From Candidatus Wolfebacteria bacterium GW2011_GWB1_47_1 (GTDB lineage: Bacteria; Patescibacteriota; Minisyncoccia; UBA6257; UBA9933): DNA of 64,000 bases. A model generated the notes under the pieces. It was given only the letters and a program-made list of their open reading frames with translations. It was not told where the DNA came from and searched no databases. Location: the NCBI GenBank assembly GCA_001029635.1, contig CP011209.1:414866-478865 (forward strand), in the 5' to 3' direction. Position 1 is the first letter of the stretch. Every line of letters starts with the position of its first letter. Shown here piece by piece: positions 3,118 through 53,513 of this stretch. Made by a program: the position numbers and the translations under genes.

Positions 3118-4440
3118 ATGGACCAACTGACTCCTGAACTACGAAATATGTTTGCGGAACAACTATTTGGCGCGTTCGTCGAAAACGGAGAAAACGGCGT
3201 ATTTGTCGTTCGCGCGGATGCTTCCATCGCGTATGTCAATCAGGCTATGGGGAAGCTACTCGCATACGATATTGATGCATTTATCGGAAGGCCATTTTTA
3301 GATTTTTGGGCAACGGAATTCAAGGCACTTGGCGAGGAGCGTTATCAGGCTCGTATTGCAGGAGCGGAGCCGCCCAAGCGATATGACATCGAAATGATTC
3401 GCAAGGATGGTTTGCGGCTTCCGGTTGAGGTGACCGCATATCGAATACTGTTTGAGGGAGTTGCTGCTGATGCAATCGTCGTGCGTGACATTAGCGAGCA
3501 TCGTCGATTGGAGGCGGAATTGCGGAATGCCTTAAAACAATCCCGTGAACTCTCATCCGTCGTTGAAACGAGTTTCGACGCCATTGTCATTACGGATTCC
3601 GAGGGGCTTATTACGTATGTTAATAAGAGCTGGCAGGCACTTAACGGATGGGCATCGGAAGAAGTTGTTGGTAAGGTTACTCCGCGTGTTATTAAATCAG
3701 GAAGACAAAATTCTTCATTCTACCGAGTGTTTTGGCAGACGATTAAAGCCGGCTCCAGTGCTCGGCTGGATGTCACTAATCGGCGTAAAGACGGCTCGGA
3801 ATATTTCGCCGAGCTGATTGTTATGCCACTGAAGGATGACCAAGGGCTTATTACGGGATTTGCCGGATTTCAACACGATGTCACGGCGCGCCATCAGGTT
3901 GAGCAGTCGCTTTTTGAAGCGAAGGAATTTGCCGAGCACATCATCGACAGTGCGAATGCGATGGTCGTGGTACTTGATAACACAGGAGCCATCGAGGTGT
4001 TCAACAAGCGGGCTGAAGCGATAACCGGTTATACTAAGGCAGACCTGCAAGGGAAGAATTGGTTTGAGGTGCTGGCGCCGCGTGAGCGCTATCCCGATGT
4101 TTGGCATGTCTTTGAGGATTATCAGAAGCGGGGCATCGTGTTGCAACAATTTGAAAACCCTATTTTGACGAAAGATGGTCGCGAGTTGATGATTGCATGG
4201 ACAAATAGCGAATTGAATCAAGGAGGGCAGACGGTCGGGACAATTTCGTTCGGCATGGACATTACCGACCGCAAGAAGACAGAAGCTCAGCTTTTAACGA
4301 TAAACCAGGAACTGCAGCGGTTTAAAGACCTAATGGTCGGCCGTGAGCTTAAGATGATTGAATTAAAAAAAGAAGTAGAATTATTGCGCGCTGGACAATC
4401 GGGACATCTTCATGCACAAACAGATATCGCTTCGAAATAA
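3118..4440 (+). CDS. Sensor protein with three PAS/PAC domains and no output domain
   Basis: Repeated PAS blocks (..SIAYVNQAMGKLL.., ..DAIVITDSEGLITYVNKSWQALNGW.., ..VVVLDNTGAIEVFNKRAEAITGY..). It ends in the coiled-coil tail GRELKMIELKKEVELLR. The likely start is ATG 3118 (MDQLTPE); the ORF-track N-terminal extension looks spurious. Confidence 0.7.
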   Translation: MDQLTPELRNMFAEQLFGAFVENGENGVFVVRADASIAYVNQAMGKLLAYDIDAFIGRPFLDFWATEFKALGEERYQARIAGAEPPKRYDIEMIRKDGLRLPVEVTAYRILFEGVAADAIVVRDISEHRRLEAELRNALKQSRELSSVVETSFDAIVITDSEGLITYVNKSWQALNGWASEEVVGKVTPRVIKSGRQNSSFYRVFWQTIKAGSSARLDVTNRRKDGSEYFAELIVMPLKDDQGLITGFAGFQHDVTARHQVEQSLFEAKEFAEHIIDSANAMVVVLDNTGAIEVFNKRAEAITGYTKADLQGKNWFEVLAPRERYPDVWHVFEDYQKRGIVLQQFENPILTKDGRELMIAWTNSELNQGGQTVGTISFGMDITDRKKTEAQLLTINQELQRFKDLMVGRELKMIELKKEVELLRAGQSGHLHAQTDIASK

Positions 4441-6841
4441 AATAACCGCATTTACCGTCGGATCTATTCTTTTATTCGGATCCGTTGCAATTGCGATCGT
4501 GTTTTTTTATGCGCGATCAAATTATTACGCATTGCGACAAGCTGATATTCGGACGGAGGTTCTTGAGCAGGCGAGTGATATAGGGGCTTCACTTGAGCAG
4601 GCGAAGCGCATCGTAAAGCATATTGCAAGCGAGAAAGAATTAATACGGTATTTGGAAGGCGATGCCGAATCTTCAGATCGTGCGCGTATTGTTGATATGT
4701 TAAGTCATTACAACGGGGAGCGGCTGTATGATCCATTATACGTACTTGATCGATCAGGCATCGCTACTGCATCGCTCGATTCTACCTTTGTCGGGAATGA
4801 TTATAGTTTTCGCAGTTATTTTACGAACGCGATGCGTGGTGAGTCAACGGCAGAATTTTTGATTGGCGTAACGTCCGGAAAGGCGGGGTACTATTTTTCA
4901 TCCCCAGTCATTTCCAGTGATGGGGGTATTATCGGTGTCGTTGTAGGGAAGGTTTCCCGGGATATTGGAAATGAATTGATTTCCGGAAGTTTTTTAATAG
5001 AAAACGGGTCAATTATGATTACCGATACCGACGGTATCGTTTTGTACGCAAGTCGGGCGGATCAACTCTACCACTCTATCGGGGTATTGTCTGATGAAGA
5101 TCGGGATAGAATCACAGGAAACAGGCAGTTTGCTAATCTTCCCTTGACCTCGCTTGGATATAACCGCATCTTTCAGGCCATACGAACACATACAGGAACG
5201 CCTGACTTATTTGATTTTTCCAACCCTGTTACCCATGAGAATGAGGTGGTCGCTGTTGTTGCGATCCCGCAGACGGATTTGTTTCTTGTTGTTCAAGAGA
5301 GTGTGGTGTCACTTATTGCGCCGGTGCGCATTATTCTATTCGGTCTTATTATTGCTGTGCTCCTTTCCATGCTCGCCACTTCAATATTTGTGTACGTACT
5401 CGTTCGTCAGTTTTTGGCACCATTATCACGATTAAAATTTGCCGCAGAGCGCATCAGTGCGGGTGCGTTTGATTATCGCGTCGAGATCAAAACCGGTGAT
5501 GAATTAGGTAAAATGGGCGAACAGTTTAATGTAATGGCGGATCGTCTTAAAAATTCGTATGCCGGACTTGAACGAACGGTGGCGGAAAAAACGAGCGAAC
5601 TTTCTGCCAAGTTGGTTAGTATCGAGCAAAAGAATGCGGAGCTACGTGATACGCAACGCGCGGTATTGAATATTTTGGAAGATGCACGCAGTTTGGAAGC
5701 GCAGATTGCAGATGAGCGTAACCATTTGCGCGGGATTCTTGCGGCGATGGGTGAGGGACTCTTTGTGCTCGATGATCGATATCGCATCGTACTGAGCAAT
5801 CCAATTGCCGAGCGGATACTTGATATGCAGGCTGATGAAATTATCGGAAAGAGTATGAGCGATATCATTACGCTCTATAAGGGGAAAGAGGAAGTTCCGG
5901 TTGAAGGACGGCCTATGGTAAAAGTGTTTACTGAGGGCAAGATCATTGCGGCTGATCTGCGGGATGATTTCTATTGGCAGACATCCAAAGGGCGTAAATT
6001 CCCCGTTGGTTTCATCGCTGCTCCACTTACGGTTGGTGGAATACGAAATGAGGTCGTTGTGTTTCGCAACCTGGAAAAGGAGAAAAATCTTGATGAGGCA
6101 CGGACAAGTTTTATTTCCATAACATCACATCAGCTCCGCACGCCGCTTACGTCGATCAAGTGGTTCCTCGAGATGCTCATGGAAGGGAGCTACGCCGATC
6201 CGTTGACCGTAAAACAGCGCGAATTCGCCGACCTTGCGTACCAGGCGAGTGAAAAGATGGTGGGCATCATTAATCTTTTGCTGCAGATCGCTCGCGTCGA
6301 ATCAGGCCGATTGAAGGTGCTTCCGGTCCCTACGGATCTGAAACAGCTTACCGCTTCGATCATTGCATCGTTTGGGAATGCATTCCAGATGCGTAAACAG
6401 GTAATAATAGTCCAGACTGTTCCCGATCCGCTGCCGGTTATTCAGATTGATGTCGACGTCATGGGGCAGGTCATCCAAAACCTGTTGTCCAATGCGAATC
6501 GGTATGCGAACGAAAATAGCACGATTATCATTTCGATTGAAGCGGGTCAAGGAGAACAGGGTAGTGACTTCATTACGTATTCGATCGCCGATCAAGGGAT
6601 TGGTATCGGTAAGAATGCCACCAGTCGCATCTTTGAGAAATTCTATCGCGCAGAGAATGCATTACGATCTGTGCCGGAAGGGTCGGGACTTGGCCTTTCC
6701 TTGGTAAAGTCGCTTGTGGAGGGATGGGGCGGGCGTGTGTGGTTTGAATCTGAAGAAGGGAAGGGTACTACGTTCTTTTTTACGATCCCGATCGGTGGCA
6801 TGCAAGCTCGCGCCGGAGAAGTCGGTATTGCGGTTACTTAA
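4412..6841 (+). CDS. Sensor histidine kinase (TM-Cache-TM-HAMP-PAS-HisKA-HATPase_c)
   Basis: N-terminal TM helix. H-box SITSHQLRTPLTSI. HAMP region (..AERISAGAFDYRVEIKTGDELGKMGEQFNVMADRL..). HATPase G-boxes (GIGIGKNA, GSGLGLSLVKSLVE). Confidence 0.85.
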   Translation: MHKQISLRNKITAFTVGSILLFGSVAIAIVFFYARSNYYALRQADIRTEVLEQASDIGASLEQAKRIVKHIASEKELIRYLEGDAESSDRARIVDMLSHYNGERLYDPLYVLDRSGIATASLDSTFVGNDYSFRSYFTNAMRGESTAEFLIGVTSGKAGYYFSSPVISSDGGIIGVVVGKVSRDIGNELISGSFLIENGSIMITDTDGIVLYASRADQLYHSIGVLSDEDRDRITGNRQFANLPLTSLGYNRIFQAIRTHTGTPDLFDFSNPVTHENEVVAVVAIPQTDLFLVVQESVVSLIAPVRIILFGLIIAVLLSMLATSIFVYVLVRQFLAPLSRLKFAAERISAGAFDYRVEIKTGDELGKMGEQFNVMADRLKNSYAGLERTVAEKTSELSAKLVSIEQKNAELRDTQRAVLNILEDARSLEAQIADERNHLRGILAAMGEGLFVLDDRYRIVLSNPIAERILDMQADEIIGKSMSDIITLYKGKEEVPVEGRPMVKVFTEGKIIAADLRDDFYWQTSKGRKFPVGFIAAPLTVGGIRNEVVVFRNLEKEKNLDEARTSFISITSHQLRTPLTSIKWFLEMLMEGSYADPLTVKQREFADLAYQASEKMVGIINLLLQIARVESGRLKVLPVPTDLKQLTASIIASFGNAFQMRKQVIIVQTVPDPLPVIQIDVDVMGQVIQNLLSNANRYANENSTIIISIEAGQGEQGSDFITYSIADQGIGIGKNATSRIFEKFYRAENALRSVPEGSGLGLSLVKSLVEGWGGRVWFESEEGKGTTFFFTIPIGGMQARAGEVGIAVT

Positions 6842-9564: not shown

Positions 9565-10215
9565 TCATCGTACTACTTTCTTTTGTTGGTGATGGTTTAT
9601 GCCAAGCGCAACGATCACGACCATAAGCACTATTCCGGAAAAACCAAGAAATTGGAGTATATTGCCGAGTAACACTGCCTCGCTGGCATATGCGCTTACG
9701 ATTGCATAGGGGATTTCTGAGAGTACTGTCACGATACAATAGGCTCCGAGCGGGTAATGCACGACACCGAATGCGTAGCCCAATTCAGCCGGAAGTACCA
9801 GTCGTAAGAGAAAGGCTGTTGTGAATGTCGCCCGTTCGTTAATCTGTTTACTCCATACCTCAAATTTCTTTCGGTAGACAAGAAAGGGGACTATTCGTTC
9901 TCCTACTATCCTTCCGATAAGATAGGCAATGATGCCACCGACTAGCCATCCGGTCAGAAGAAGGAGTGTGGTAAGGAGTGGTCCCCAGATCGCTACAGCA
10001 AAAGGGACAAGTGGGATATTGGTCAACGGGCTGATTAATGCTCCGAGAGCCGATGAGATAATGAAAAGCCCTATCGCAAGCAGCTCGTTTTTTGTGACCA
10101 ATAGATTAAAGAAGTCGACGATCCGCCAAAATTCATTTTGCAGCAATGCCGAAGACCAAAATAATAATGCAATGATGATTGCCAGAACTAGTCCGATGAT
10201 CACGCGCTTGTTCAT
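9565..10215 (-). CDS. DedA/VTT (SNARE-associated, TVP38/TMEM64-like) membrane protein
   Basis: Polytopic hydrophobic 216-aa protein with the DedA-like G-rich core (GPLLTTLLLLTGWLVGGIIAYLIGRIVG). Confidence 0.55.
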   Translation of the reverse strand: MNKRVIIGLVLAIIIALLFWSSALLQNEFWRIVDFFNLLVTKNELLAIGLFIISSALGALISPLTNIPLVPFAVAIWGPLLTTLLLLTGWLVGGIIAYLIGRIVGERIVPFLVYRKKFEVWSKQINERATFTTAFLLRLVLPAELGYAFGVVHYPLGAYCIVTVLSEIPYAIVSAYASEAVLLGNILQFLGFSGIVLMVVIVALGINHHQQKKVVR

Positions 10216-10403
10216 ATGGTTAAGTATAGCAAATGTATTGCCTGCGCGCAGGGTTGATCTTCTTCAGAATAACGGTCGCTAGCCGTTTTACACGCCATAT
10301 AATCCCATGCAAAATTGCATAAAAAAGACGCCCGATTGACCTAACGGAAGGAGGCTAAAAAATTTGCAAAATTGATAAATTTCAGGCAATATTAGAAGCA
10401 TAT

Positions 10404-10475
10404 TGCCAGATCGTCTAATGGTAGGACAGCGGACTCTGAATCCGTCAATCTTGGTTCGAATCCAGGTCTGGCAGC
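10404..10475 (+). tRNA. tRNA-Gln (anticodon CTG)
   Basis: Cloverleaf: acceptor tgccaga/tctggca with U1-A72 and discriminator G73 (Gln identity elements). Anticodon stem cgga/tccg with loop cuCUGaa. T-loop TTCGAAT. Confidence 0.8.
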
Positions 10476-10483
10476 CCCGTAAA

Positions 10484-10558
10484 ATAACGCAAAATCAGCC
10501 CCTTCTGGGGCTGATTTTGCGTTATCACGGGGCAAGCCATTCGATGGGTTGCCCCGTG
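10484..10558 (+). terminator. Two tandem GC-rich hairpins immediately 3' of tRNA-Gln (terminator / possible att-region)
   Basis: Hairpin 1: ataacgcaaaatcagcccc-ttct-ggggctgattttgcgttat (10484-10524). Hairpin 2: cacggggcaagcc-attcgat-gggttgccccgtg (10526-10558). Confidence 0.5.
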
Positions 10559-10625
10559 ATATTTTACGAGGGCCACGTGACAAATTTCTTCGCAAATTTG
10601 TTTTACGTGGCGTATACTTATAAAA

Positions 10626-10880
10626 ATGTACTGGACTTATATTTTAGAAAATGAGGTAGATAAAAGTTGGTATATAGGTGCGACTTCTAATCTTGAAAAA
10701 CGTATCGAAGAACATCAGCGCGGACATGGTGGCGCAACTACGGGGATGAAAGTGGGTTGGAAACTTATTTATTGTGAAGGATATATAAATAAGGAAGATG
10801 CTTTTGGTAGGGAGAAATTCCTTAAAAGTGGTTCTGGTAGAAGATTTTTAAAGAAACAGTTAGCGTATTATTTGGCTTAA
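10626..10880 (+). CDS. GIY-YIG nuclease-domain small protein
   Basis: MYWTYILENEVDKSWYIGATSNLEKRIEEH..: GIY..YIG motifs with the conserved R and E. 84 aa. Confidence 0.75.
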   Translation: MYWTYILENEVDKSWYIGATSNLEKRIEEHQRGHGGATTGMKVGWKLIYCEGYINKEDAFGREKFLKSGSGRRFLKKQLAYYLA

Positions 10881-10997
10881 CTCGCGCACCTGATTCCCTT
10901 GCCCAACCCCTCTTTGGGGCGTATTATAAGTGAAATAAGAAGGGAATTAATAAGTGGGATTAAAGGCACTCTCAATCCCTTTAAGTCTTCAAGTGTG

Positions 10998-11834
10998 ATG
11001 CTTGAAATCGATATGGATATACTTAGTTCGACAGTTATTGTTATTGGAAATGGTTTTGATTTAAATCTGGGATTAAAGACGAGCTACCATGACTTTATGA
11101 AGAGTCGGTATTTTTTAGACCTACTTGTTACGGGTAATCGCCTGTGTATTTATTTAAAAAAACGCGAAAATCTTGATAATTGGGTAGATATTGAAAGTGC
11201 GCTAGTCCCTTTTTCATTGATGGAGGATTCTGTAAATTTTAAGAGTGAACTTGCTGTATTAAAGATAGCACTACGCAATTATCTAAATCATATTGATTAT
11301 GGGAATATAAATCGGAGGTCGCACGCTTATGAATTTGTTCGAGACGTGGGCATGAATGCCTCGATGATATTGAATTTTAATTATACGGATACAGTCGAAT
11401 TGATATTGCAGGAGCATGGATTGCATGCTGACTTATCTAAGGGTAAGGTGACCAAGGTTCACGGAACATTATCGAACGGTGCTGGGATAATACTTGGTGT
11501 TGAGGATAAGGCCGAGCATAGAACTGGGCATGCTTTCATTAAAAAATCTTCAGACGATTATTTCCCAGCTGTGAACGTGAGCGAATATCTTTTAGGTGCG
11601 AAATCCATCTATTTTTATGGGCATTCTTTGGGTAAGACAGATCACATGTATTTCGAAAGATTTTTTAATTCAGTAAGCGCTGCAGCTGAACCTAAAAAAG
11701 AACGCATGATTACAATGTCCTACTTAAAATCTGCTGGGAATGCTGACATGATGGAACAATTAAATAAATTAACTTCAAACAATGTGCTCATTCTTAAACA
11801 GGAAAATATTTTTATACCTCTTCCATTAGAATAA
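10998..11834 (+). CDS. AbiH-family abortive-infection protein
   Basis: The N-terminal motif VIVIGNGFDLNLGLKTSYHDF matches the AbiH signature (IGNGFDL..GL.TSY.DF). The start is ATG 10998 or 11013; the upstream part of the ORF-track call is probably untranslated. Confidence 0.7.
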   Translation: MLEIDMDILSSTVIVIGNGFDLNLGLKTSYHDFMKSRYFLDLLVTGNRLCIYLKKRENLDNWVDIESALVPFSLMEDSVNFKSELAVLKIALRNYLNHIDYGNINRRSHAYEFVRDVGMNASMILNFNYTDTVELILQEHGLHADLSKGKVTKVHGTLSNGAGIILGVEDKAEHRTGHAFIKKSSDDYFPAVNVSEYLLGAKSIYFYGHSLGKTDHMYFERFFNSVSAAAEPKKERMITMSYLKSAGNADMMEQLNKLTSNNVLILKQENIFIPLPLE

Positions 11835-11879
11835 CCCGGCATTAAAGAGGTTAGACATCTTTGGTTTTTTGAAACAATT

Positions 11880-12980
11880 ATGGCAAACAATAATCTTGCT
11901 AACGCAAAAAGGGCAAAGAATGACGAGTTTTATACGCAGTATCATGACATTGAGAAAGAAATCACTGCCTACTTTGAATACAACCCCGATGTCTTTCGGG
12001 GTAAAACAGTGCTGTTGCCTTGTGATGATCCAGAATGGAGCAACTTTACCAAGTTTTTTGCGCAAAATTTCCAGAAATTTGGACTCAAAAAACTTATTAG
12101 CACGAGCTATGCTACAGATAGTAAGAACGTTAAAAGTGACTACCAGCCAACTCGATTCGAAACCAGCGATCCGCAATACGACGAAAACAAAACTGCCAGA
12201 AACGGCAAGATTTTTACCTTATCTCACGACAAAACCGGCAACGGAAAGATAGATGTTAATGACTTAGAATGGCATTATCTAGACGGAGACGGCGATTTTA
12301 AAAGCGATGAGATCAAAGCATTACGCGATGAAGCCGACATTGTTATTACGAATCCTCCTTTTTCGCTTTTTCGTGATTTTTTAATGTGGATTATGGAGGC
12401 TAATAAGCGGTTCGTGATCATTGGTAATATGAATGCAATTACCTATAAAGAAGTGTTCGCGTTACTCAAAGAGGATCACATTTGGTTAGGTAATGGTTTT
12501 CATGCCGGCAACGCTTATTTTGCCACGCCTTTTGCCAGAGAATATGCAGGAGGAGTATATGATTCCGAAACCGGTTTAGTGAAATTCAGAAATGTTTGTT
12601 GGTTTACAAATCTTGACCATGGGCGACGCCATCAATTGTTGCCGCTTATGACCATGGAAGATAATTTAAAGTACAGCAAACACAAAGAGATTAAAGGCAA
12701 AGACTCGTATGATCGGTATGATAATTATAACGCTATAGAGGTTCCATTTACCGACGCTATCCCGAGTGATTATGATGGAGTGATGGGGGTGCCGATCAGT
12801 TTTCTCGATAAATATTCCCCTGAGCAGTTTGCGATTTTAGGAAGTGACTACAACATTAAAGAAGGACTATTGCCCGAATTAGTTAACCCGATGTGGAAAG
12901 GTAAGGTAGATAGGGGATATATAAATAATGAAAGGCGTTATAGTCGAATATTTATTAGACATAAGAAAAGTAAAATATAA
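11880..12980 (+). CDS. N6-adenine DNA methyltransferase, M.EcoRI family
   Basis: N-terminus [44 protein letters not shown] matches the characteristic M.EcoRI N-terminal signature. Catalytic motif IV: ITNPPF. Confidence 0.8.
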
Positions 12981-14143
12981 TGAAAACAACCCTAAAAACT
13001 GACATTACCGTTAAAGATATCTGCGAAGGATTTGTCTACAATGAACTCGAAGGCAAGGGGCTATTTGGCTTATCTGGCAAGCTCACTATTCAGCCGGAAT
13101 ATCAGCGTAATTATATCTACGCCGATGGTAAAAGAGATGTTGCTGTTATTGAGTCAATTCTCAAAGGCTATCCGCTCGGATTGATTTATTTCAACAAAAC
13201 CAGCGACGATGTGCTGGAAGTTTTGGACGGGCAACAGCGTATCACCAGTATTGGTCGGTTTGTTACTAACAAGTTTGCTGTAAAAGATGAAAATGGCATG
13301 GAACAATATTTTAGTGGCATCGCAGCTGATAAACAGACCCAAATTATGAACGCAACGCTACTAGTCTACGAGTGCGAGGGCAAAGAGAGCGAGATAAAAG
13401 AGTGGTTTAAGACAATCAATATCGCCGGTGTCCCGCTTAATAATCAGGAATTGCTCAACGCCGTATATTCGGGCCCATTTGTAACGCTTGGTAAAGAAGA
13501 GTTCAGTAATAGTCAAAACTCCAATATTCAAAAATGGAGTGCGTATGTATCGGGTAGTGCTAATCGGCAGGAGTTTTTGGAACGGGCATTGGACTGGGTA
13601 AGTAAAGGCAATATCGGTGATTACATGAGTCGCCACCGCAAAGATAAAAATATTACCGAACTAAAAACTTATTTTAATAGCGTGATCGATTGGGTTTCCG
13701 CTGTATTTACGGACGTAGAGAGTGAAATGCGCGGACTGGAGTGGGGGCGACTGTATGAAGAATATCATAATAAGGCATATAATCCTTCCAGGGTGTCGGC
13801 AGAAGTGCAGAGGCTCTATGGTGACCCATATATCAAAAACCGCAAAGGTATTTTTGAATTTATCTTAGGAGGTTCTGCCGATACAAAATTGCTTGAGGTT
13901 AGAGTTTTTGATGACGCAACCAAAAAATCAGTATACAAAGAACAAGCTACGAAAGCTGAAAAGAAAAAAGAATCGAATTGCCCACTGTGCGCTTTAGGGC
14001 ACGACGTCAACAAGGGTAAAATGTGGAAGTTGGAAGAAATGGACGCCGACCATGTCACAGCGTGGAGTAAAGGTGGGGCGACTTCTGCTAAAAATTGCCA
14101 GATGCTGTGTAAAACACATAACCGAGCAAAAGGAAATCGGTAA
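12980..14143 (+). CDS. DUF262 (ParB/Srx-like, GmrS-type) N-terminal domain fused to a C-terminal HNH endonuclease
   Basis: DGQQR motif ([14 protein letters not shown]). C-terminal HNH: [42 protein letters not shown]. The start overlaps the methyltransferase stop (ATGA), implying translational coupling. Confidence 0.8.
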
Positions 14144-14190
14144 TAGAACCAACGGTTTTAAAGGTATCTGACCTATTTAATTTGCATCGA

Positions 14191-14232
14191 CTAAATCCAA
14201 ACCACCCGCATGTGCGGGTGGTTTGGATTTAG
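14191..14232. terminator. Bidirectional terminator hairpin
   Basis: ctaaatccaaaccacccgca-tg-tgcgggtggtttggatttag: 19-bp perfect stem between convergent genes. Confidence 0.65.
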
Positions 14233-14783
14233 TTGATTTTAATGAGTTCCACATCGAATATTAGGGTCGCCTTTGGTGGGATCGGGCCGTATCCTGCTTC
14301 GCCGTACGCGAGTGTGTAGGGGATGGTTAGTCTACGCTGTTCGCCGACTTTCATGCCGGTAACGCCCATGTCCCATCCTTTGATGACCATGCCGGCCCCA
14401 AGCTTGAATGAGAAGGGGGTTCCTCTATCAAGACTCGAATCGAACTTGGTGCCATCTTCCAAAATTCCCGTATAGTGGACTGCGACGGTGTCGCCGTTTT
14501 TTGCTTCGACTCCTGTGCCTTCCTTAAGCATTTCTTTCTTTATTGTATTTGGTCCAAGTATTGTCATGAGCTGCAATGTTTGCTTTGTGGGATTATTTGT
14601 TGTTGCGGGGGCTTCTTCTTGTTGTAGTGTAGTTGCAGGTAGTTGCTCCTGCGGTGGCGTGGTCGGCTGTTGTTTGGTATTCTTGTTTGTTTTGAAATAT
14701 TCGAACGAGAATAGTAGAGCAATGGTGATTATTAGCGCAGTAATAATCGGTATGACAATTTTTTTATTCATGTATGTAATCAT
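14229..14783 (-). CDS. FKBP-type peptidyl-prolyl cis-trans isomerase, membrane anchored
   Basis: C-terminal FKBP domain (GDTVAVHYTGILEDGTKFDSSLDRGTPFSFKLGAGMVIKGWDMGVTGMKVGEQRRLTIP..LIFDVELI). N-terminal TM helix plus low-complexity linker. Confidence 0.85.
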   Translation of the reverse strand: MITYMNKKIVIPIITALIITIALLFSFEYFKTNKNTKQQPTTPPQEQLPATTLQQEEAPATTNNPTKQTLQLMTILGPNTIKKEMLKEGTGVEAKNGDTVAVHYTGILEDGTKFDSSLDRGTPFSFKLGAGMVIKGWDMGVTGMKVGEQRRLTIPYTLAYGEAGYGPIPPKATLIFDVELIKIN

Positions 14784-16009: not shown

Positions 16010-16013
16010 AAAA

Positions 16014-16037
16014 AGCCCGGAGAGAAATCTCCGGGCT
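16014..16037. terminator. Bidirectional terminator hairpin
   Basis: agcccggagagaaatctccgggct, preceded by an A-run and followed on the other strand by a T-run. Confidence 0.6.
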
Positions 16038-16073
16038 CGAATGCTCGTTGTCGAGTGCTACCATCGCGGCGCG

Positions 16074-16382
16074 TCAGATGATGATGCTTTTGCCGCTGTC
16101 GGCAGGACTGCTGCGTGCTGCGATCGCAGGGCGGTCTTCGACGAACGTGTAGATCGTGAAGGTTACCGGCGAAGAAGGAATCGTGTATTGGAAGGGGCTG
16201 CTGCGTGCTGCGATGGCGACGGACAGGGAGAGTGGCTGTATATCGATGTTTGCCTGTGCGTCCGCCGTTGGGGCGGTGGCGACGAGCTTGTCGTCGATCG
16301 TTCTCATCGTTGTGCTATCCACTCCGATCCTAATGGCGAGTAGGGCGAACAGAACGACGAGAAAACCCATTAAACGTCTCAC
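16074..16382 (-). CDS. Small secreted/membrane-anchored protein with an internal AIAARSSP repeat (hypothetical)
   Basis: GGAGG RBS 5 nt upstream of GTG 16382. N-terminal hydrophobic signal (MRRLMGFLVVLFALLAIRIG). The AIAARSSP motif occurs twice, mirrored by a DNA direct repeat (gctgctgcgtgctgcgat) at about 16103 and 16199. Confidence 0.35.
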   Translation of the reverse strand: MRRLMGFLVVLFALLAIRIGVDSTTMRTIDDKLVATAPTADAQANIDIQPLSLSVAIAARSSPFQYTIPSSPVTFTIYTFVEDRPAIAARSSPADSGKSIII

Positions 16383-16612
16383 AAGTACCTCCTTTACTAA
16401 AGAGATGTGACACATCGCGCTCAATGCAACCTCCTTTTGTCTCGCATAGCGGTGAGCAACCGTTATACGACGTGATAAGGTGCAGATGATCAAGAAGTGA
16501 TCGTGCATCTAGTATAGTGGTATGACGCCAGGGGAGTCAATGGGGGGCTGTGGAATATTTGGGCTATTCCCTATATGATTAATAGGAACTCATTTATTTA
16601 GTTTTTTATAAT

Positions 16613-16810
16613 ATGGAATATTCATCTATGTATAAGAAAGGAAATACAAAGGGAATGTGCAATGGCGTGTACGGATTCGCCGTGCTTGGCGCAGCAGTTT
16701 ATTTCATTCAACACGCAACGACATTTTGGATGGGAATTTTTGGTATCGGCAAGGCGATCTTTTGGCCTGCTATGGTTATGTATAAGGTTTTGGGCATGCT
16801 TGGTATGTAA
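16613..16810 (+). CDS. Small hydrophobic membrane protein (hypothetical)
   Basis: 65 aa with two predicted TM helices, followed directly by a strong terminator. Confidence 0.35.
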   Translation: MEYSSMYKKGNTKGMCNGVYGFAVLGAAVYFIQHATTFWMGIFGIGKAIFWPAMVMYKVLGMLGM

Positions 16811-16843
16811 GAAAAATCCCCCCCCGCGCGGGGGGATTTTTCT
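16811..16843. terminator. Bidirectional terminator hairpin
   Basis: gaaaaatcccccccc-gcgc-ggggggatttttc. Confidence 0.65.
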
Positions 16844-43899: not shown

Positions 43900-44781
43900 A
43901 TGAACATTCGCCGGCCAAGCGATATTAGAAAAAAACAGAATAAACGGGATTCTAAGAAGAAATACATCATCGCCGGAGGGAGCGCTGTTTTTTTACTACT
44001 GGTCGTCGGATCGGTATTCGGTATTCGTCAGACATCGTTGTTCCGTATCGATTCCGTTTTCGTAGAGGGGATACCGGAGGCGTATGGCGTTCAGGTGCGA
44101 CGCGATCTCGAATCCTTTTCGAGGGATCATTCGCTTGTGTTTCGATTTTTAGGTAGCGGCAATATGATCGCATGGGATGGCACACCTTCGGCGTTTTTGG
44201 ACGCAAATCCCCAATTTCGCGATGTTCGCATATTAAAGGATTATATGCGCAAGTCCGTAACCATCATTGTCGATGGCCGTGAAAAATTTGGCGTGTGGTG
44301 TCATGATCCGGCACGCTCCACCTTGATGCCGATCGAAGAAGGAGCTGCGAGCACTACGACTAATAATGAAGAATACGAAGAGGAAGAGCCGGATGATACA
44401 TGCTATTGGTTTGATCGCGATGGTGTGCTATTCGCGCGTGCTCCTCAGGTTAAGAGCGAGCTGTTTAATCGAGTCTATGATTCCACGGGGCGCTCGATTG
44501 GGTTGCGTGAAAAGATCCTTCCTGATCGGCTTTTCGTGAATTTGGCAAAGATATTCAAATTGATGGAGATGGCGCAGATCAATACCAAAACCGTATTTGT
44601 GCGCGACCTGGCATTGGAAGAAGTCGATACGGATTCAGTATCCGATCCGAGGATTATATTCAGTCTACGAAACGATCCTTTGTTCGCATTGAGCGCGATT
44701 GACGCATTAAAACAATCGGGAGAGTGGAGCGGATTGCACTATGCGAATTTTACCGTAGAGAATCGTGCTTCGTATAAATAA
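43900..44781 (+). CDS. FtsQ/DivIB-like cell-division protein (POTRA domain)
   Basis: Basic N-terminus, a single TM helix, then ..FRIDSVFVEGIPEAYG.. (POTRA-like). An acidic low-complexity insert (EEYEEEEPDD). Confidence 0.45.
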   Translation: MNIRRPSDIRKKQNKRDSKKKYIIAGGSAVFLLLVVGSVFGIRQTSLFRIDSVFVEGIPEAYGVQVRRDLESFSRDHSLVFRFLGSGNMIAWDGTPSAFLDANPQFRDVRILKDYMRKSVTIIVDGREKFGVWCHDPARSTLMPIEEGAASTTTNNEEYEEEEPDDTCYWFDRDGVLFARAPQVKSELFNRVYDSTGRSIGLREKILPDRLFVNLAKIFKLMEMAQINTKTVFVRDLALEEVDTDSVSDPRIIFSLRNDPLFALSAIDALKQSGEWSGLHYANFTVENRASYK

Positions 44782-44835
44782 TGACCAGACAAATAAAAAA
44801 TCATCCGGGAGAAGGATGATTTTTTATTTGTCTGG

Positions 44836-46533
44836 TCATTCCACATGCGAAGACAGTTTTTTTATCAGCTTCAGATCCCACTCCTTTAGATCGTCTAGCA
44901 GTTTCATGTGAGGATCGATTGCGATCGACCGCCCCAGGTATTGGCCGCTCGTAAAGTGGGGGAATATGACGTAGTCCGCGCCGTGCTGATATAACCGCTC
45001 CACCTCCTTTTCATCATCCGATCGAACGATAATTTTTATGTTGCACCCTTGCTTTTTAAGAGTAGTAACCTCCTTGATCAACATGTCGTTGTTTTTGAAA
45101 TCGGATGTGGTTGATATAACAAGCCGTGCATTGTGTAGATTTGCCTTTTCCAATATCTCCTCATCATCGATATCGCCAAATAAATATGTGTACCCATATT
45201 TTTTCAAAAAGTGGATTATTTCGGGATCGAAGTCGATCACGAGCACATCTTCTTTTTTGAGATTGAATGCAATACTTTGGCCGATACGATGCGCTCCGAT
45301 AAGTATGATGGGTTTCGCGAACTCTTCATCTTCGGATATTTTTTCCGAGAGGTTTTTCCGTTGGAACAATGATAGGAGCGGGATTAGTCGCTGATAGATT
45401 GGCTCCGCGTGCGTTACAAGATACGTCGAGACTGCAATACTAAGAATCGTCGCTCCCGTTATAATGGCGACAATCTCGGTCGAGAGATGTCCGAGCTTCA
45501 TGCCGATACTCGCAAGCACAAGGCTGAATTCGGATACCTGTGCAATGGTCATTCCCGTGAAAAAGGATGTCTTTTTGCGATAGCCCATAGCTCCCATGAT
45601 CGCGAGTATGACGAGCGGCTTGATAATTAATACGAACAGCGTGAACGCCATAAGTGGCAGGATGATGTTTGTATAACTGGAAAACACGAGTGATGAGCCA
45701 AGAATGACAAAGAAGATGAGGATGAAGAAATCCCGTAGATATTTTATCTTTGAAACAATCTGAAACTGATGGGATGAACTCGAGAGGGATATACCCGCAA
45801 GTAATCCGCCTACCTCGATCGGGAAGCCGATGGCAGGATGCGATACGGTTGCCGCAACGATGAATGCCCAGCTGAGACTACTGAAGAAGGTTAATTCTTG
45901 AGAGAGCGCTATCTTGTCGAAAATGACTGGGATAACCTTTCTCCCGATAAGGATCGTTGCTCCAAAGAGCAGGGCCGCCTTGCCGATTGTGAGTGCCAGT
46001 TGCATAGGCATAAACCCGGTTCCTGACGCAATGCCCGAAAGAAGTACGAGAATGAGAATGACTACCATGTCCTGAATTAAGAGGAGTCCAACGCTTAACT
46101 TGCCATAGAGGCTACCCGTATCTTTTTTTTCTGAGAGCATCTTTATTACGATGACTGTGCTTGATAGCGTGAGCGCTATCGCAATATAGGCCGATTCGAC
46201 CGGAGAAAAATGGAACAGCGTTGAAAGTAGAAACCCGAGCGCGAACGTGAGTGCGATCTGCGCCCCACCGATAACAAAGGACGGTTTGCCTATTAGTTTT
46301 AATGACTTGAAGTCTATCTCGAGGCCTACCAGGAAGAGTAGGAACATAATCCCCAGGTCGGAGAAGATTCGAAGCGTTTCCGCATTATTTAAATGAAAAA
46401 GGCCCAGATGGCTGATGATAATACCCGTACCGATGAAGGCCAAAATAAGCGGTTGTTTAAAAAGTCGCGCAATGATGCCAAGCATGGTTGCGATCAAAAC
46501 CACGACGGCGAGTTCTAATATTCCTGTACCCAT
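44836..46533 (-). CDS. CPA2-family cation:proton antiporter with a C-terminal RCK/TrkA-N domain (Kef-type)
   Basis: Polytopic N-terminal exchanger domain. C-terminal Rossmann ..ILIGAHRIGQSIAFNL..VLVIDFDPE... Confidence 0.8.
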   Translation of the reverse strand: MGTGILELAVVVLIATMLGIIARLFKQPLILAFIGTGIIISHLGLFHLNNAETLRIFSDLGIMFLLFLVGLEIDFKSLKLIGKPSFVIGGAQIALTFALGFLLSTLFHFSPVESAYIAIALTLSSTVIVIKMLSEKKDTGSLYGKLSVGLLLIQDMVVILILVLLSGIASGTGFMPMQLALTIGKAALLFGATILIGRKVIPVIFDKIALSQELTFFSSLSWAFIVAATVSHPAIGFPIEVGGLLAGISLSSSSHQFQIVSKIKYLRDFFILIFFVILGSSLVFSSYTNIILPLMAFTLFVLIIKPLVILAIMGAMGYRKKTSFFTGMTIAQVSEFSLVLASIGMKLGHLSTEIVAIITGATILSIAVSTYLVTHAEPIYQRLIPLLSLFQRKNLSEKISEDEEFAKPIILIGAHRIGQSIAFNLKKEDVLVIDFDPEIIHFLKKYGYTYLFGDIDDEEILEKANLHNARLVISTTSDFKNNDMLIKEVTTLKKQGCNIKIIVRSDDEKEVERLYQHGADYVIFPHFTSGQYLGRSIAIDPHMKLLDDLKEWDLKLIKKLSSHVE

Positions 46534-52402: not shown

Positions 52403-52473
52403 AGCGGGTATTGCATAGTGGTAGTGCGCAACCTTCCCAAGGTTGAAGCGAGGGTTCGATTCCCTTTACCCGC
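52403..52473 (+). tRNA. tRNA-Gly (anticodon CCC)
   Basis: Acceptor gcgggta/tacccgc. Anticodon stem caacc/ggttg with loop ttCCCaa. T-loop TTCGATT. Discriminator U. A TATAAT box 14 nt upstream. Confidence 0.8.
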
Positions 52474-52474
52474 T

Positions 52475-52520
52475 CACAACTTAAAAACCCCCGGGAAACC
52501 CCCGGGGGTTTTTAAGTTGT
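52475..52520 (+). terminator. Strong terminator hairpin 3' of tRNA-Gly
   Basis: cacaacttaaaaacccccgg-gaaa-cccccgggggtttttaagttgtg. Confidence 0.7.
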
Positions 52521-52651
52521 GGATGAGTAGATACGGGAATCGAAGGGTATCTGAAAAATATAAACTGCTTTATATTTTTCAGAACCCCGGCTTTGAAGGA
52601 GGAGTGGAACCTGTGCGAATTTATGAGCACGATGGAGCGACGGGTGAAAAG

Positions 52652-52668
52652 GATTCCCTTTACCCGCT
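52652..52668 (+). repeat. 17-nt exact direct repeat of the tRNA-Gly 3' end (att-like scar)
   Basis: gattccctttacccgct is identical to tRNA positions 52457-52473. A second hairpin follows at 52669-52710 (aacaacataaaagcc-tttg-aggcttttatgttgtt). Confidence 0.5.
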
Positions 52669-52709
52669 TAAAAAAAACAACATAAAAGCCTTTGAGGCTT
52701 TTATGTTGT

Positions 52710-53513
52710 TCAGTATGAAAAGGGAACGGGGGTATTAGCTCTTGTCGGCTTGTTGATCCGGAATTTTTCGTGTAGTACTCGCGCTTTAAGGAGGAAGTCG
52801 ATCGCGTCATTCGCATCTACCGATATGATCGATGCCAATGTGCTCAGTTTTGTATTGAATACCGCACGGTCGGATCGTGGAATTCTTACTCCTTCGTTTG
52901 TCCTAATGTATAATTCTTCGTTGAGATGGTTAGTATCCGCGACACAGATGAGGTGATCTACCGTCCCAGTTTTTTGATCCAAGAAGCGTATCGATAGCGT
53001 GGTCTGTTCTTCGTGTAATGCCCGAAATATATAATCATTAAAATCGAGATCGTCTGATATGCCACGCGTCAGGTTGAATGTGAACCGGTCGACACGTTCC
53101 TGACCTGGCCAGTCTTTTGCAATTGTAATGATGTCTCCTTCGCGCATGACCCGTATTGTACTGGGGACTCCTTGTACGATGGGGTATGCGGGAATCGTTC
53201 GAGTGTCTTTGATACCATCTACATCGATCAGTTCACGGTGCATGAAGTATGGGCAAAAAATAAATCGTCGCTTATTTGTGTAACAGAGGATCGATCGGTG
53301 GCGGCCAACGATCATATCCTCGATGTAATAGGTCTGATCGAACCCTGCCTTGGTTAATTCATTCCTGATGTTTCTCGACTGTTCATAGCAGTTCGACCCG
53401 AACTGTTTAGACGGCCTTTGTCCGTTTAGGACATACATGGACGCGGCGGAACTATATTGAAATGAGAGCGAATTATCTAGAATTCGCTTTAGTTTTTTTA
53501 GCCCCGTATTCAT
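52710..53513 (-). CDS. Hypothetical protein (possible Cys-nucleophile fold; weak NAT/transglutaminase-like G.NCYE motif)
   Basis: 267-aa ORF. ..KQFGSNCYEQSRNIRNELTKAGF.. loosely resembles the arylamine N-acetyltransferase/transglutaminase catalytic-Cys region. This is speculative. Confidence 0.35.
   Translation of the reverse strand: MNTGLKKLKRILDNSLSFQYSSAASMYVLNGQRPSKQFGSNCYEQSRNIRNELTKAGFDQTYYIEDMIVGRHRSILCYTNKRRFIFCPYFMHRELIDVDGIKDTRTIPAYPIVQGVPSTIRVMREGDIITIAKDWPGQERVDRFTFNLTRGISDDLDFNDYIFRALHEEQTTLSIRFLDQKTGTVDHLICVADTNHLNEELYIRTNEGVRIPRSDRAVFNTKLSTLASIISVDANDAIDFLLKARVLHEKFRINKPTRANTPVPFSY

Follow-up and report, generated by a model that had tools for sequence, protein, structure and literature searches.

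A probable patchwork of acquired defense genes beside tRNA-Gln in a Candidatus Wolfebacteria genome includes a mobile methyltransferase and DUF262-HNH nuclease pair

Results and discussion

Gene content and base composition

The DNA analyzed here, referred to as the window, is a stretch of 64,000 nt from the 984,447-bp contig CP011209.1 (positions 414,866–478,865) of Candidatus Wolfebacteria bacterium GW2011_GWB1_47_1, a sub-megabase genome of the candidate phyla radiation (CPR), the type of host that a first-pass annotation of the sequence had surmised. Within it, four open reading frames (ORFs), all on the forward strand, occupy about 3.7 kb between the gene for tRNA-Gln(CTG) and the convergent FKBP gene (Table 1), a segment that we call the islet. 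They encode a small GIY-YIG protein, an AbiH-family protein, an EcoRI-family N6-adenine DNA methyltransferase, and a nuclease in which a DUF262 domain is joined to a zinc-ribbon HNH domain; the four domain calls, all of them made in that annotation, were upheld by hidden Markov model searches with Pfam. The AbiH gene lies 45 bp upstream of the methyltransferase–nuclease pair, and the start of the nuclease ORF overlaps the stop of the methyltransferase by 1 nt. An in-frame TTG at 10899 would give AbiH an alternative start and a length of 311 aa; homologs and public gene calls favor the ATG (278 aa). No integrase or transposase was called in the Pfam lists for about 8 kb on either side of the islet, which bears out the missing integrase reported earlier.

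The islet is the most deviant segment of the window. Its GC content is 39.8%, in the lowest 1% for segments of its length (window mean 46.3%, SD 1.9%), and sliding windows of 300 nt gave 34–44% GC inside it (minimum 34%) and 42–52% in the flanks. The AT-rich segment first described is therefore real, but the contrast given for it (25–35% against 50–65% GC) was too strong. The GC content at third codon positions (GC3) climbs along the islet, from 27% in the GIY-YIG gene through 34% in AbiH and 40% in the methyltransferase to 43% in the nuclease, whereas that of the other 65 ORFs is 50 ± 5%; the first three of these genes have the three lowest values in the window, the GIY-YIG gene the lowest of all. 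The tetranucleotide distance also reaches its maximum here, at 10501 (about 4.3 SD). The islet is foreign-looking, its parts are all of known kinds, and the climb in GC3 is one hint that the four genes came separately.

Domains and motifs of the methyltransferase–nuclease pair

Over their full lengths, the methyltransferase and the nuclease match the PADLOC models MTase_II (295 bits) and REase_II PDLC03418 (286 bits), respectively. The methyltransferase motif NPPF and the nuclease motif DGQQR, of the ParB/Srx-type DUF262, were invariant in all 67 sequences compared, as were the DH...HN residues and the zinc-binding cysteine pairs of the nuclease. The C-terminus of the nuclease gave PF01844 (HNH) and HNH_5 alone, with no Pfam match to DUF1524 at E ≤ 0.01. 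Judged by these motifs, the pair has two of the features that define a Type II system: a methyltransferase with its catalytic motif, and an adjacent, linked nuclease whose active-site motif is intact. Of the features of a GmrSD-type Type IV enzyme, the nuclease shares the DUF262 domain with DGQQR, and lacks both the DUF1524 domain and the habit of acting alone, without a methyltransferase. The Type II definition also asks for cleavage at or near a fixed sequence, with Mg2+ alone and blocked by the cognate methylation; the invariance of DGQQR casts doubt on independence from nucleoside triphosphates (NTPs).

The single-sequence AlphaFold2 model of the nuclease was unusable (predicted local distance difference test, pLDDT, 33), and a profile search returned a weak match to BrxU (7p9k) over the DGQQR motif. 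As a separate observation, the family profile at nuclease residues 245–292 (window positions 13712–13855) weakly matches three CW_7 repeats of the lysozyme chain 5i8l (whole-sequence E 1.8e-4; single repeats weak). Two approaches to the specificity of the pair were abandoned. Palindrome avoidance was not diagnostic of a target, as only TGCA and CTAG were mildly low in the 64 kb. A single variable specificity region in the methyltransferase, which would let many specificities share one nuclease, was not clear-cut, variability being spread over residues 81–120, 201–240, and 321–366.

Distribution of the pair

With each species represented by one genome, the scan located the pair at more than 591 genome loci, across phyla. 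The 80 best matches of the nuclease, which come from Patescibacteria, Chloroflexota, Bacteroidota, Ignavibacteria, Proteobacteria, and Omnitrophota, are 80–87% identical to the protein of the window. The pair is also carried by 142 plasmid records, including a 9-kb Pediococcus plasmid, and by 42 IMG/VR viral contigs, and it is complete in the cultured Flavobacterium phage vB_FspS_laban6-1 (NC_048834.1; L110 in our set of fetched loci, 3781–6143; nuclease 80% identical), where it forms an opposite-strand insert between the tape-measure gene and other genes of the structural region. In each of the 66 species-genome loci from which both genes were recovered, the methyltransferase is upstream of the nuclease, usually overlapping it by 4 nt or leaving a gap of 1 nt, and most of the fetched loci from viruses, phages, and plasmids show this order too. 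The DNA similarity between the window and other pair loci spans 11872–14147 and goes no further; what they share is precisely the two coding sequences, from the start to the stop codons of the pair.

The pair is a highly mobile two-gene module, and its horizontal origin is well supported by these comparisons. The proposal that defense genes were acquired horizontally thus stands for the pair, given its high identity across phyla and its presence on plasmids and in phages. Among 1.84 billion representative proteins, a search returned 468 clusters at E ≤ 1e-30, many of them full length at 36–51% identity, which makes the highly conserved clade a single branch within a large family. In one of the fetched loci (L024, 228–659), a weak GIY-like ORF stands directly upstream of the nuclease, in the position usually taken by the methyltransferase.

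The AbiH-family protein

The nearest homologs found for the AbiH-family protein are about 40% identical to it and mostly about 265–300 aa long; all 120 of those listed carry PF14253, and the named hosts are Bacteroidota and Campylobacterota. Three homologs were examined, and all were solitary genes in unrelated contexts, one of them beside prophage terminase genes. Since a family profile search found AbiH at none of 122 other pair loci, its adjacency to the pair is particular to this lineage.

With 60 sequences as input, AlphaFold2 gave a high-confidence model (pLDDT 91.4; predicted template modeling score, pTM, 0.90), and the predicted fold is that of the defense-type SIR2-like proteins. The family-invariant residues, which are the G-N-G-F-D loop, N128, and H155-G156, are probably the counterparts of the sirtuin glycine loop and of the catalytic Asn and His, a correspondence drawn from the order of the motifs, with no superposition of residues. 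In the model, the protein would therefore have what defines the defense SIR2 NADases: the fold together with a conserved glycine-rich loop, Asn, and His. A 2026 review gives lactococcal AbiH a SIR2 fold and proposes NAD+ depletion, while listing the mechanism as unknown (PMC13064643). AbiH stands alone as a gene; with a putative phage trigger and a putative NADase activity, it would most likely consume NAD+ on sensing infection and so abort the infection. As an independent, high-confidence SIR2-like model with catalytic-type residues, the one obtained here makes the NAD+ depletion proposal directly testable.

The tRNA-Gln spacer, the terminators, and the GIY-YIG gene

Two tandem hairpins had been reported directly 3' of tRNA-Gln(CTG), and both were recovered by the inverted-repeat search: the first (10484–10525) has 19-nt arms with 100% complementarity and the second (10523–10561) 18-nt arms with 94%, and an imperfect third hairpin (about 10571–10612) completes the spacer. 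The 148-nt spacer after the tRNA gene folds with −83.5 kcal/mol (z = −12.4 vs shuffles). These hairpins were rejected as an RNA family or a repeated element, because they have no Rfam family match and no other copy in the 64-kb window; that such hairpins are common here speaks for terminators. Long-stem hairpins are frequent at gene ends across the window (27 pairs), and a layout like that at tRNA-Gln is seen at tRNA-Gly(CCC) (window 52404–52710), which is followed by three tandem long-stem hairpins (52475–52521, 52545–52588, and 52676–52710); the hairpins are therefore no marker of the islet. A related contig (L089) has one similar hairpin directly 3' of its own tRNA-Gln. Most likely, the spacer hairpins are stacked intrinsic terminators of a sort ordinary for this genome.

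At the other border, a bidirectional terminator with a 19-bp stem had been described before the FKBP gene. The hairpin is there, but its stem is larger: the arms are 25 nt long and 96% complementary, and the terminator scan gives 20 pairs, the maximum that it counts. As the FKBP gene of a relative also has its own hairpin just 3', this one is best regarded as the native FKBP terminator, serving both directions of transcription.

The 84-aa GIY-YIG protein is a bare, stand-alone domain with no demonstrated defense role. It had been counted among the defense genes, a view that we do not retain, as it matches none of the PADLOC defense models. Its 90%-identity cluster has one member, the gene has no second copy in the 64-kb window, and it accompanies the pair at none of the 122 other loci. 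The sole clear homolog among the fetched loci (L068, 5717–5974, reverse strand; 47% identical) abuts a tRNA-Leu gene on an alphaproteobacterial contig. With two cases, the position of such a gene beside a tRNA is suggestive. This position, the lowest GC3 of the window, and a weak PHROG homing-endonuclease match speak for a small selfish element, made of the GIY-YIG gene and the hairpins and targeting tRNA neighborhoods, next to which the defense genes landed later. We regard such an element as quite unlikely, however, because the cases are only two and the protein is without a DNA-binding domain like those of the known homing GIY-YIG enzymes. Moreover, neither the gene nor the hairpins recur in the window, and the tandem hairpins at tRNA-Gly stand there without a GIY-YIG gene.

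Insertion beside tRNA-Gln and comparison with relatives

The islet was described at first as inserted at tRNA-Gln. Adjacency to the tRNA gene is plain, and the AT-rich composition starts right after it; insertion, in turn, found none of its usual traces. The far border carries no repeat of the tRNA 3' end (the direct repeats in 10200–14400 are short two-copy matches without the tRNA), no integrase is present, and the synteny comparison gave no empty site. Compared with a tRNA-integrated island, the islet has the tRNA adjacency and the deviant composition, and lacks the tRNA 3'-end repeat and the integrase.

An Fmt-anchored metagenome scan retrieved five related contigs (Fmt 73–79% identical), all of them without the islet. 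They keep the gene order 3D-Fmt-Def-EamA, two also keep GreA and GNAT, and the region past GNAT or 3D differs in each. The contigs L088, L089, and L094–L099 are without the islet and are also without the tRNA-Gln, FKBP, and neighboring genes at that place. The search for an empty site was also taken through each flank. On the left, contigs with homologs of the VTT gene at 79%, 59%, and 55% identity had no tRNA-Gln beside it; on the right, FKBP matches from all bacteria dominated, and the one full-length relative was on a contig of 1.4 kb with only 86 nt beyond the gene. No empty site was thus found among the relatives retrieved, the locus being different in every one. Because the relatives without the islet have a rearranged locus, insertion next to tRNA-Gln is plausible but unproven. 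In a Candidatus Yonathbacteria contig (L091, 7728–9327), a gene for a Y1 transposase of the IS200/IS605 type comes after tRNA-Gln(TTG) and the VTT homolog.

Same-species contigs from several metagenomes are clonal, all of them with the islet and with 0–4 differences over about 14 kb. Together with the lack of mobility genes, this could suggest native Wolfebacteria genes whose AT-richness is due to function or expression and not to foreign origin. That explanation is very unlikely, since the nuclease shares 80–87% identity with proteins of other phyla, vs 54–84% between the housekeeping proteins and their nearest relatives found, and since the islet is absent from those relatives and is an outlier in both GC3 and tetranucleotides.

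About 10 of 80 other pair loci have a same-strand tRNA gene no more than about 2 kb upstream, mostly on Patescibacteria contigs (Table 1). In the closest match (L008), the pair begins 135 bp after tRNA-Gln(TTG). By a rough estimate, this frequency exceeds the chance expectation for small genomes. These loci, the same-strand tRNA-Gln that adjoins the islet, and the onset of AT-rich composition right after it would agree with one genomic island that entered by a single site-specific integration at the 3' end of tRNA-Gln and has since lost its integrase. Besides the missing integrase and 3'-end repeat, this is opposed by the four genes, which travel together nowhere else and share DNA with other loci only within the pair, by GC3 values that span 16 points across the islet, and by the many kinds of tRNA found near the pair elsewhere. 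We therefore consider a single integrase-mediated event unlikely.

Other features of the window

The longest inverted repeat of the window (44768–44852) has 39-nt arms of 87% complementarity, separated by 7 nt, and is placed at the ends of two ORFs, 43900–44781 on the forward strand and 44836–46533 on the reverse strand. Between the GNAT and GreA genes, about 830 bp (16010–16842) reach up to 59% GC and contain small ORFs alone, with no Rfam match. As the spacing of GreA and GNAT is about 35–45 nt in the relatives L096 and L097, this region looks like another lineage-specific insertion.

Table 1. Features of the islet and its borders (window coordinates), and positions of split pairs and neighboring tRNA genes at other pair loci (L numbers, coordinates of each locus)
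Feature	Position	Strand	Evidence or remark
tRNA-Gln (anticodon CTG)	10403–10477	+	ARAGORN; Rfam tRNA 61.9 bits; left border of the AT-rich segment
Structured spacer	10478–10612	+	Closing stem 10478–10486 with 10560–10568 around hairpins 1 and 2, then imperfect hairpin 3
GIY-YIG protein, 84 aa, AKM78167	10626–10880	+	Pfam GIY-YIG 58.2 bits
AbiH-family protein, 278 aa	10998–11834	+	Pfam AbiH PF14253 99.9 bits (gathering cutoff 30.9)
EcoRI-family N6-adenine DNA methyltransferase, 366 aa, AKM78169	11880–12980	+	Pfam EcoRI_methylase 405 bits, full length
DUF262 + zinc-ribbon HNH nuclease, 387 aa, AKM78170	12980–14143	+	Pfam GmrSD_N 79 bits, HNH 29 bits
Long-stem hairpin, 25-nt arms	14186–14237		Inverted-repeat search and terminator scan; right border
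FKBP gene	14229–14783	-	Convergent with the islet genes; last codons inside the terminal hairpin
Split-pair loci	L019 4627–5985; L023 1633–4414; L027 4109–5938; L050 2868–5689; L051 5153–6004; L078 5135–5980; L036 4950–5999		
tRNAs of several kinds near the pair	L008 4002–4073; L070 3872–3947; L086 4272–4363; L087 3990–4061; L051 2103–2177; L077 34–109	Same as pair	Upstream of the pair
tRNA near the pair	L050 7219–7293		Just downstream of the pair

Origin of the islet and proposed activity of the pair

We read the islet as a patchwork of separately acquired defense genes, with the pair, AbiH, and the GIY-YIG gene as its pieces between tRNA-Gln and FKBP, and give this reading, taken together with the activities proposed for the pair and for AbiH, a probability of about 0.72. 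Separate acquisition is suggested because the genes do not co-occur elsewhere and because of the GC3 gradient. The first-pass annotation had presented one compact island; this description was given up, as AbiH and the GIY-YIG gene accompany the pair at none of the 122 other loci and the boundaries of the shared DNA are at 11872 and 14147. CPR genomes commonly carry restriction-modification systems, which makes the arrangement less notable than it was first held to be.

Within the pair, the EcoRI-family enzyme would methylate adenine in the host DNA, and the translationally coupled DUF262-HNH protein would cut incoming DNA that is without the mark. The intact DGQQR suggests that the HNH nuclease is gated by nucleotide binding or hydrolysis, in the manner of GmrSD, BrxU, and SspE. 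Tentatively, the methyltransferase and its DGQQR-DUF262-HNH partner may represent a very widespread class of restriction-modification that is not true Type II, in which unmethylated DNA would be cleaved under the control of a nucleotide switch of the ParB/Srx type, and the pair may serve as a landing pad for other defense genes.

Several points weigh against these proposals. What the analysis gave directly are the domains, conserved motifs, gene pairing, cross-phylum spread, deviant composition, and fold; separate acquisition was not observed, and the number and order of the acquisitions, like the restriction activity, the NTP dependence, the NADase activity, and the phage trigger, are deduced. 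For AbiH, the PADLOC model gave 33 bits (E 1e-8) and aligned only residues 46–68, to model positions 3–25 of 343, and the literature search turned up no AbiH with a described biochemical activity or mechanism. The literature searched likewise yielded no member of this nuclease–methyltransferase family for which a target or a cleavage activity had been measured, and PDB sequence and profile searches detected no solved structure, with nothing significant. Other genes lie between methyltransferase and nuclease in 14 of the 66 loci, so that strict co-expression is not universal; by Pfam they are PIN_8, an OLD-type ATPase, a C5 methyltransferase with HATPase, a nucleotidyltransferase (weak SMODS match) with Fic, a D12 methyltransferase, Bro-N, and RhuM. 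Finally, conservation is stronger in the nuclease than in the methyltransferase (mean pairwise identity 81% vs 60%), which holds for 99.4% of 2,211 pairs drawn from loci picked by nuclease identity and for 32 of the 35 loci of a less biased viral, phage, and plasmid set. For classical Type II pairs the reverse is expected, the nuclease being the less conserved. Nucleotide gating of the kind proposed would explain this pattern.

The same conservation pattern and the intervening genes would also suit a modification-dependent, GmrSD-like Type IV nuclease that acts on modified phage DNA, the methyltransferase not being its protective partner, and the DUF262 proteins described so far, which are GmrSD, BrxU, and SspE, do sense modified DNA (PMC4619093, PMC12707154, PMC12065111). 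Yet this alternative is improbable: the methyltransferase is upstream in 66 of 66 loci, mostly with overlapping stop and start codons, and the nuclease has a PF01844 zinc-ribbon HNH without a DUF1524 match and fits a Type II restriction-enzyme model over its full length. The pair, in addition, travels alone on 9-kb plasmids and in phage, as expected of a self-sufficient unit. Because it is always paired with a methyltransferase, the window nuclease should be blocked by modification and not dependent on it, unlike the GmrSD family.

In itself, the islet adds little past what the public annotation of the genome hints at; it presents defense genes accumulated beside a tRNA in a sub-megabase CPR genome without a mobility gene. 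The nuclease is of wider concern, as few restriction-type proteins met in these searches are as widely shared or as well conserved, and its DUF262 domain is known so far from modification-dependent enzymes, yet is coupled here to a protective methyltransferase. The main interest thus lies in a possibly nucleotide-gated DUF262-HNH restriction partner and in the habit of the pair of gathering other defense genes; its mechanism, once worked out, would serve hundreds of loci.

Comparison with known systems

Type I restriction loci have defense genes such as RhuM, Fic/DOC, and Abi embedded between the hsd genes. Similarly, the gap of this pair holds PIN_8, OLD, Fic, RhuM, Bro-N, and others in other genomes, and AbiH adjoins the pair here. 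The likeness is limited, since this is a two-gene pair without specificity or translocase subunits, and the extra gene of the window is upstream of the pair and not within it.

The AbiH of the window resembles the lactococcal AbiH (Prevots et al. 1996) in being a single gene and a member of the Pfam family, and the defense SIR2 NADases ThsA, HerA-SIR2, DSR, and Avs5 in its predicted SIR2-like fold, in which a glycine-rich loop, Asn, and His-Gly are conserved. It differs from both in that its nearest relatives found are only about 40% identical and its PADLOC AbiH match is confined to 23 residues, and, unlike ThsA/ThsB and HerA-SIR2, it has no fused sensor domain or partner gene.

With the Type II systems that have an EcoRI-family (PF13651) N6-adenine methyltransferase, the pair shares the full-length PF13651 match, the NPPF motif, the adjacent, overlapping nuclease gene, and the PADLOC Type II matches. 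An EcoRI-family enzyme of 326 aa, encoded on a ColE1-type plasmid of E. coli, shares about 40% identity with the methyltransferase, and the pair, like these systems, is carried by small plasmids and phages. The nuclease, however, is not an EcoRI-like PD-(D/E)xK enzyme but a DUF262 protein with DGQQR fused to HNH, NTPs may be involved, and it is the nuclease that is more conserved than the methyltransferase. With GmrSD, BrxU, and SspE (DUF262 + DUF1524), it has in common the N-terminal DUF262 with DGQQR and a C-terminal nuclease of the His-Me-finger type, whereas its C-terminus is a PF01844 HNH with zinc-binding cysteines, without a DUF1524 match, and the protein, at 387 aa, is shorter.

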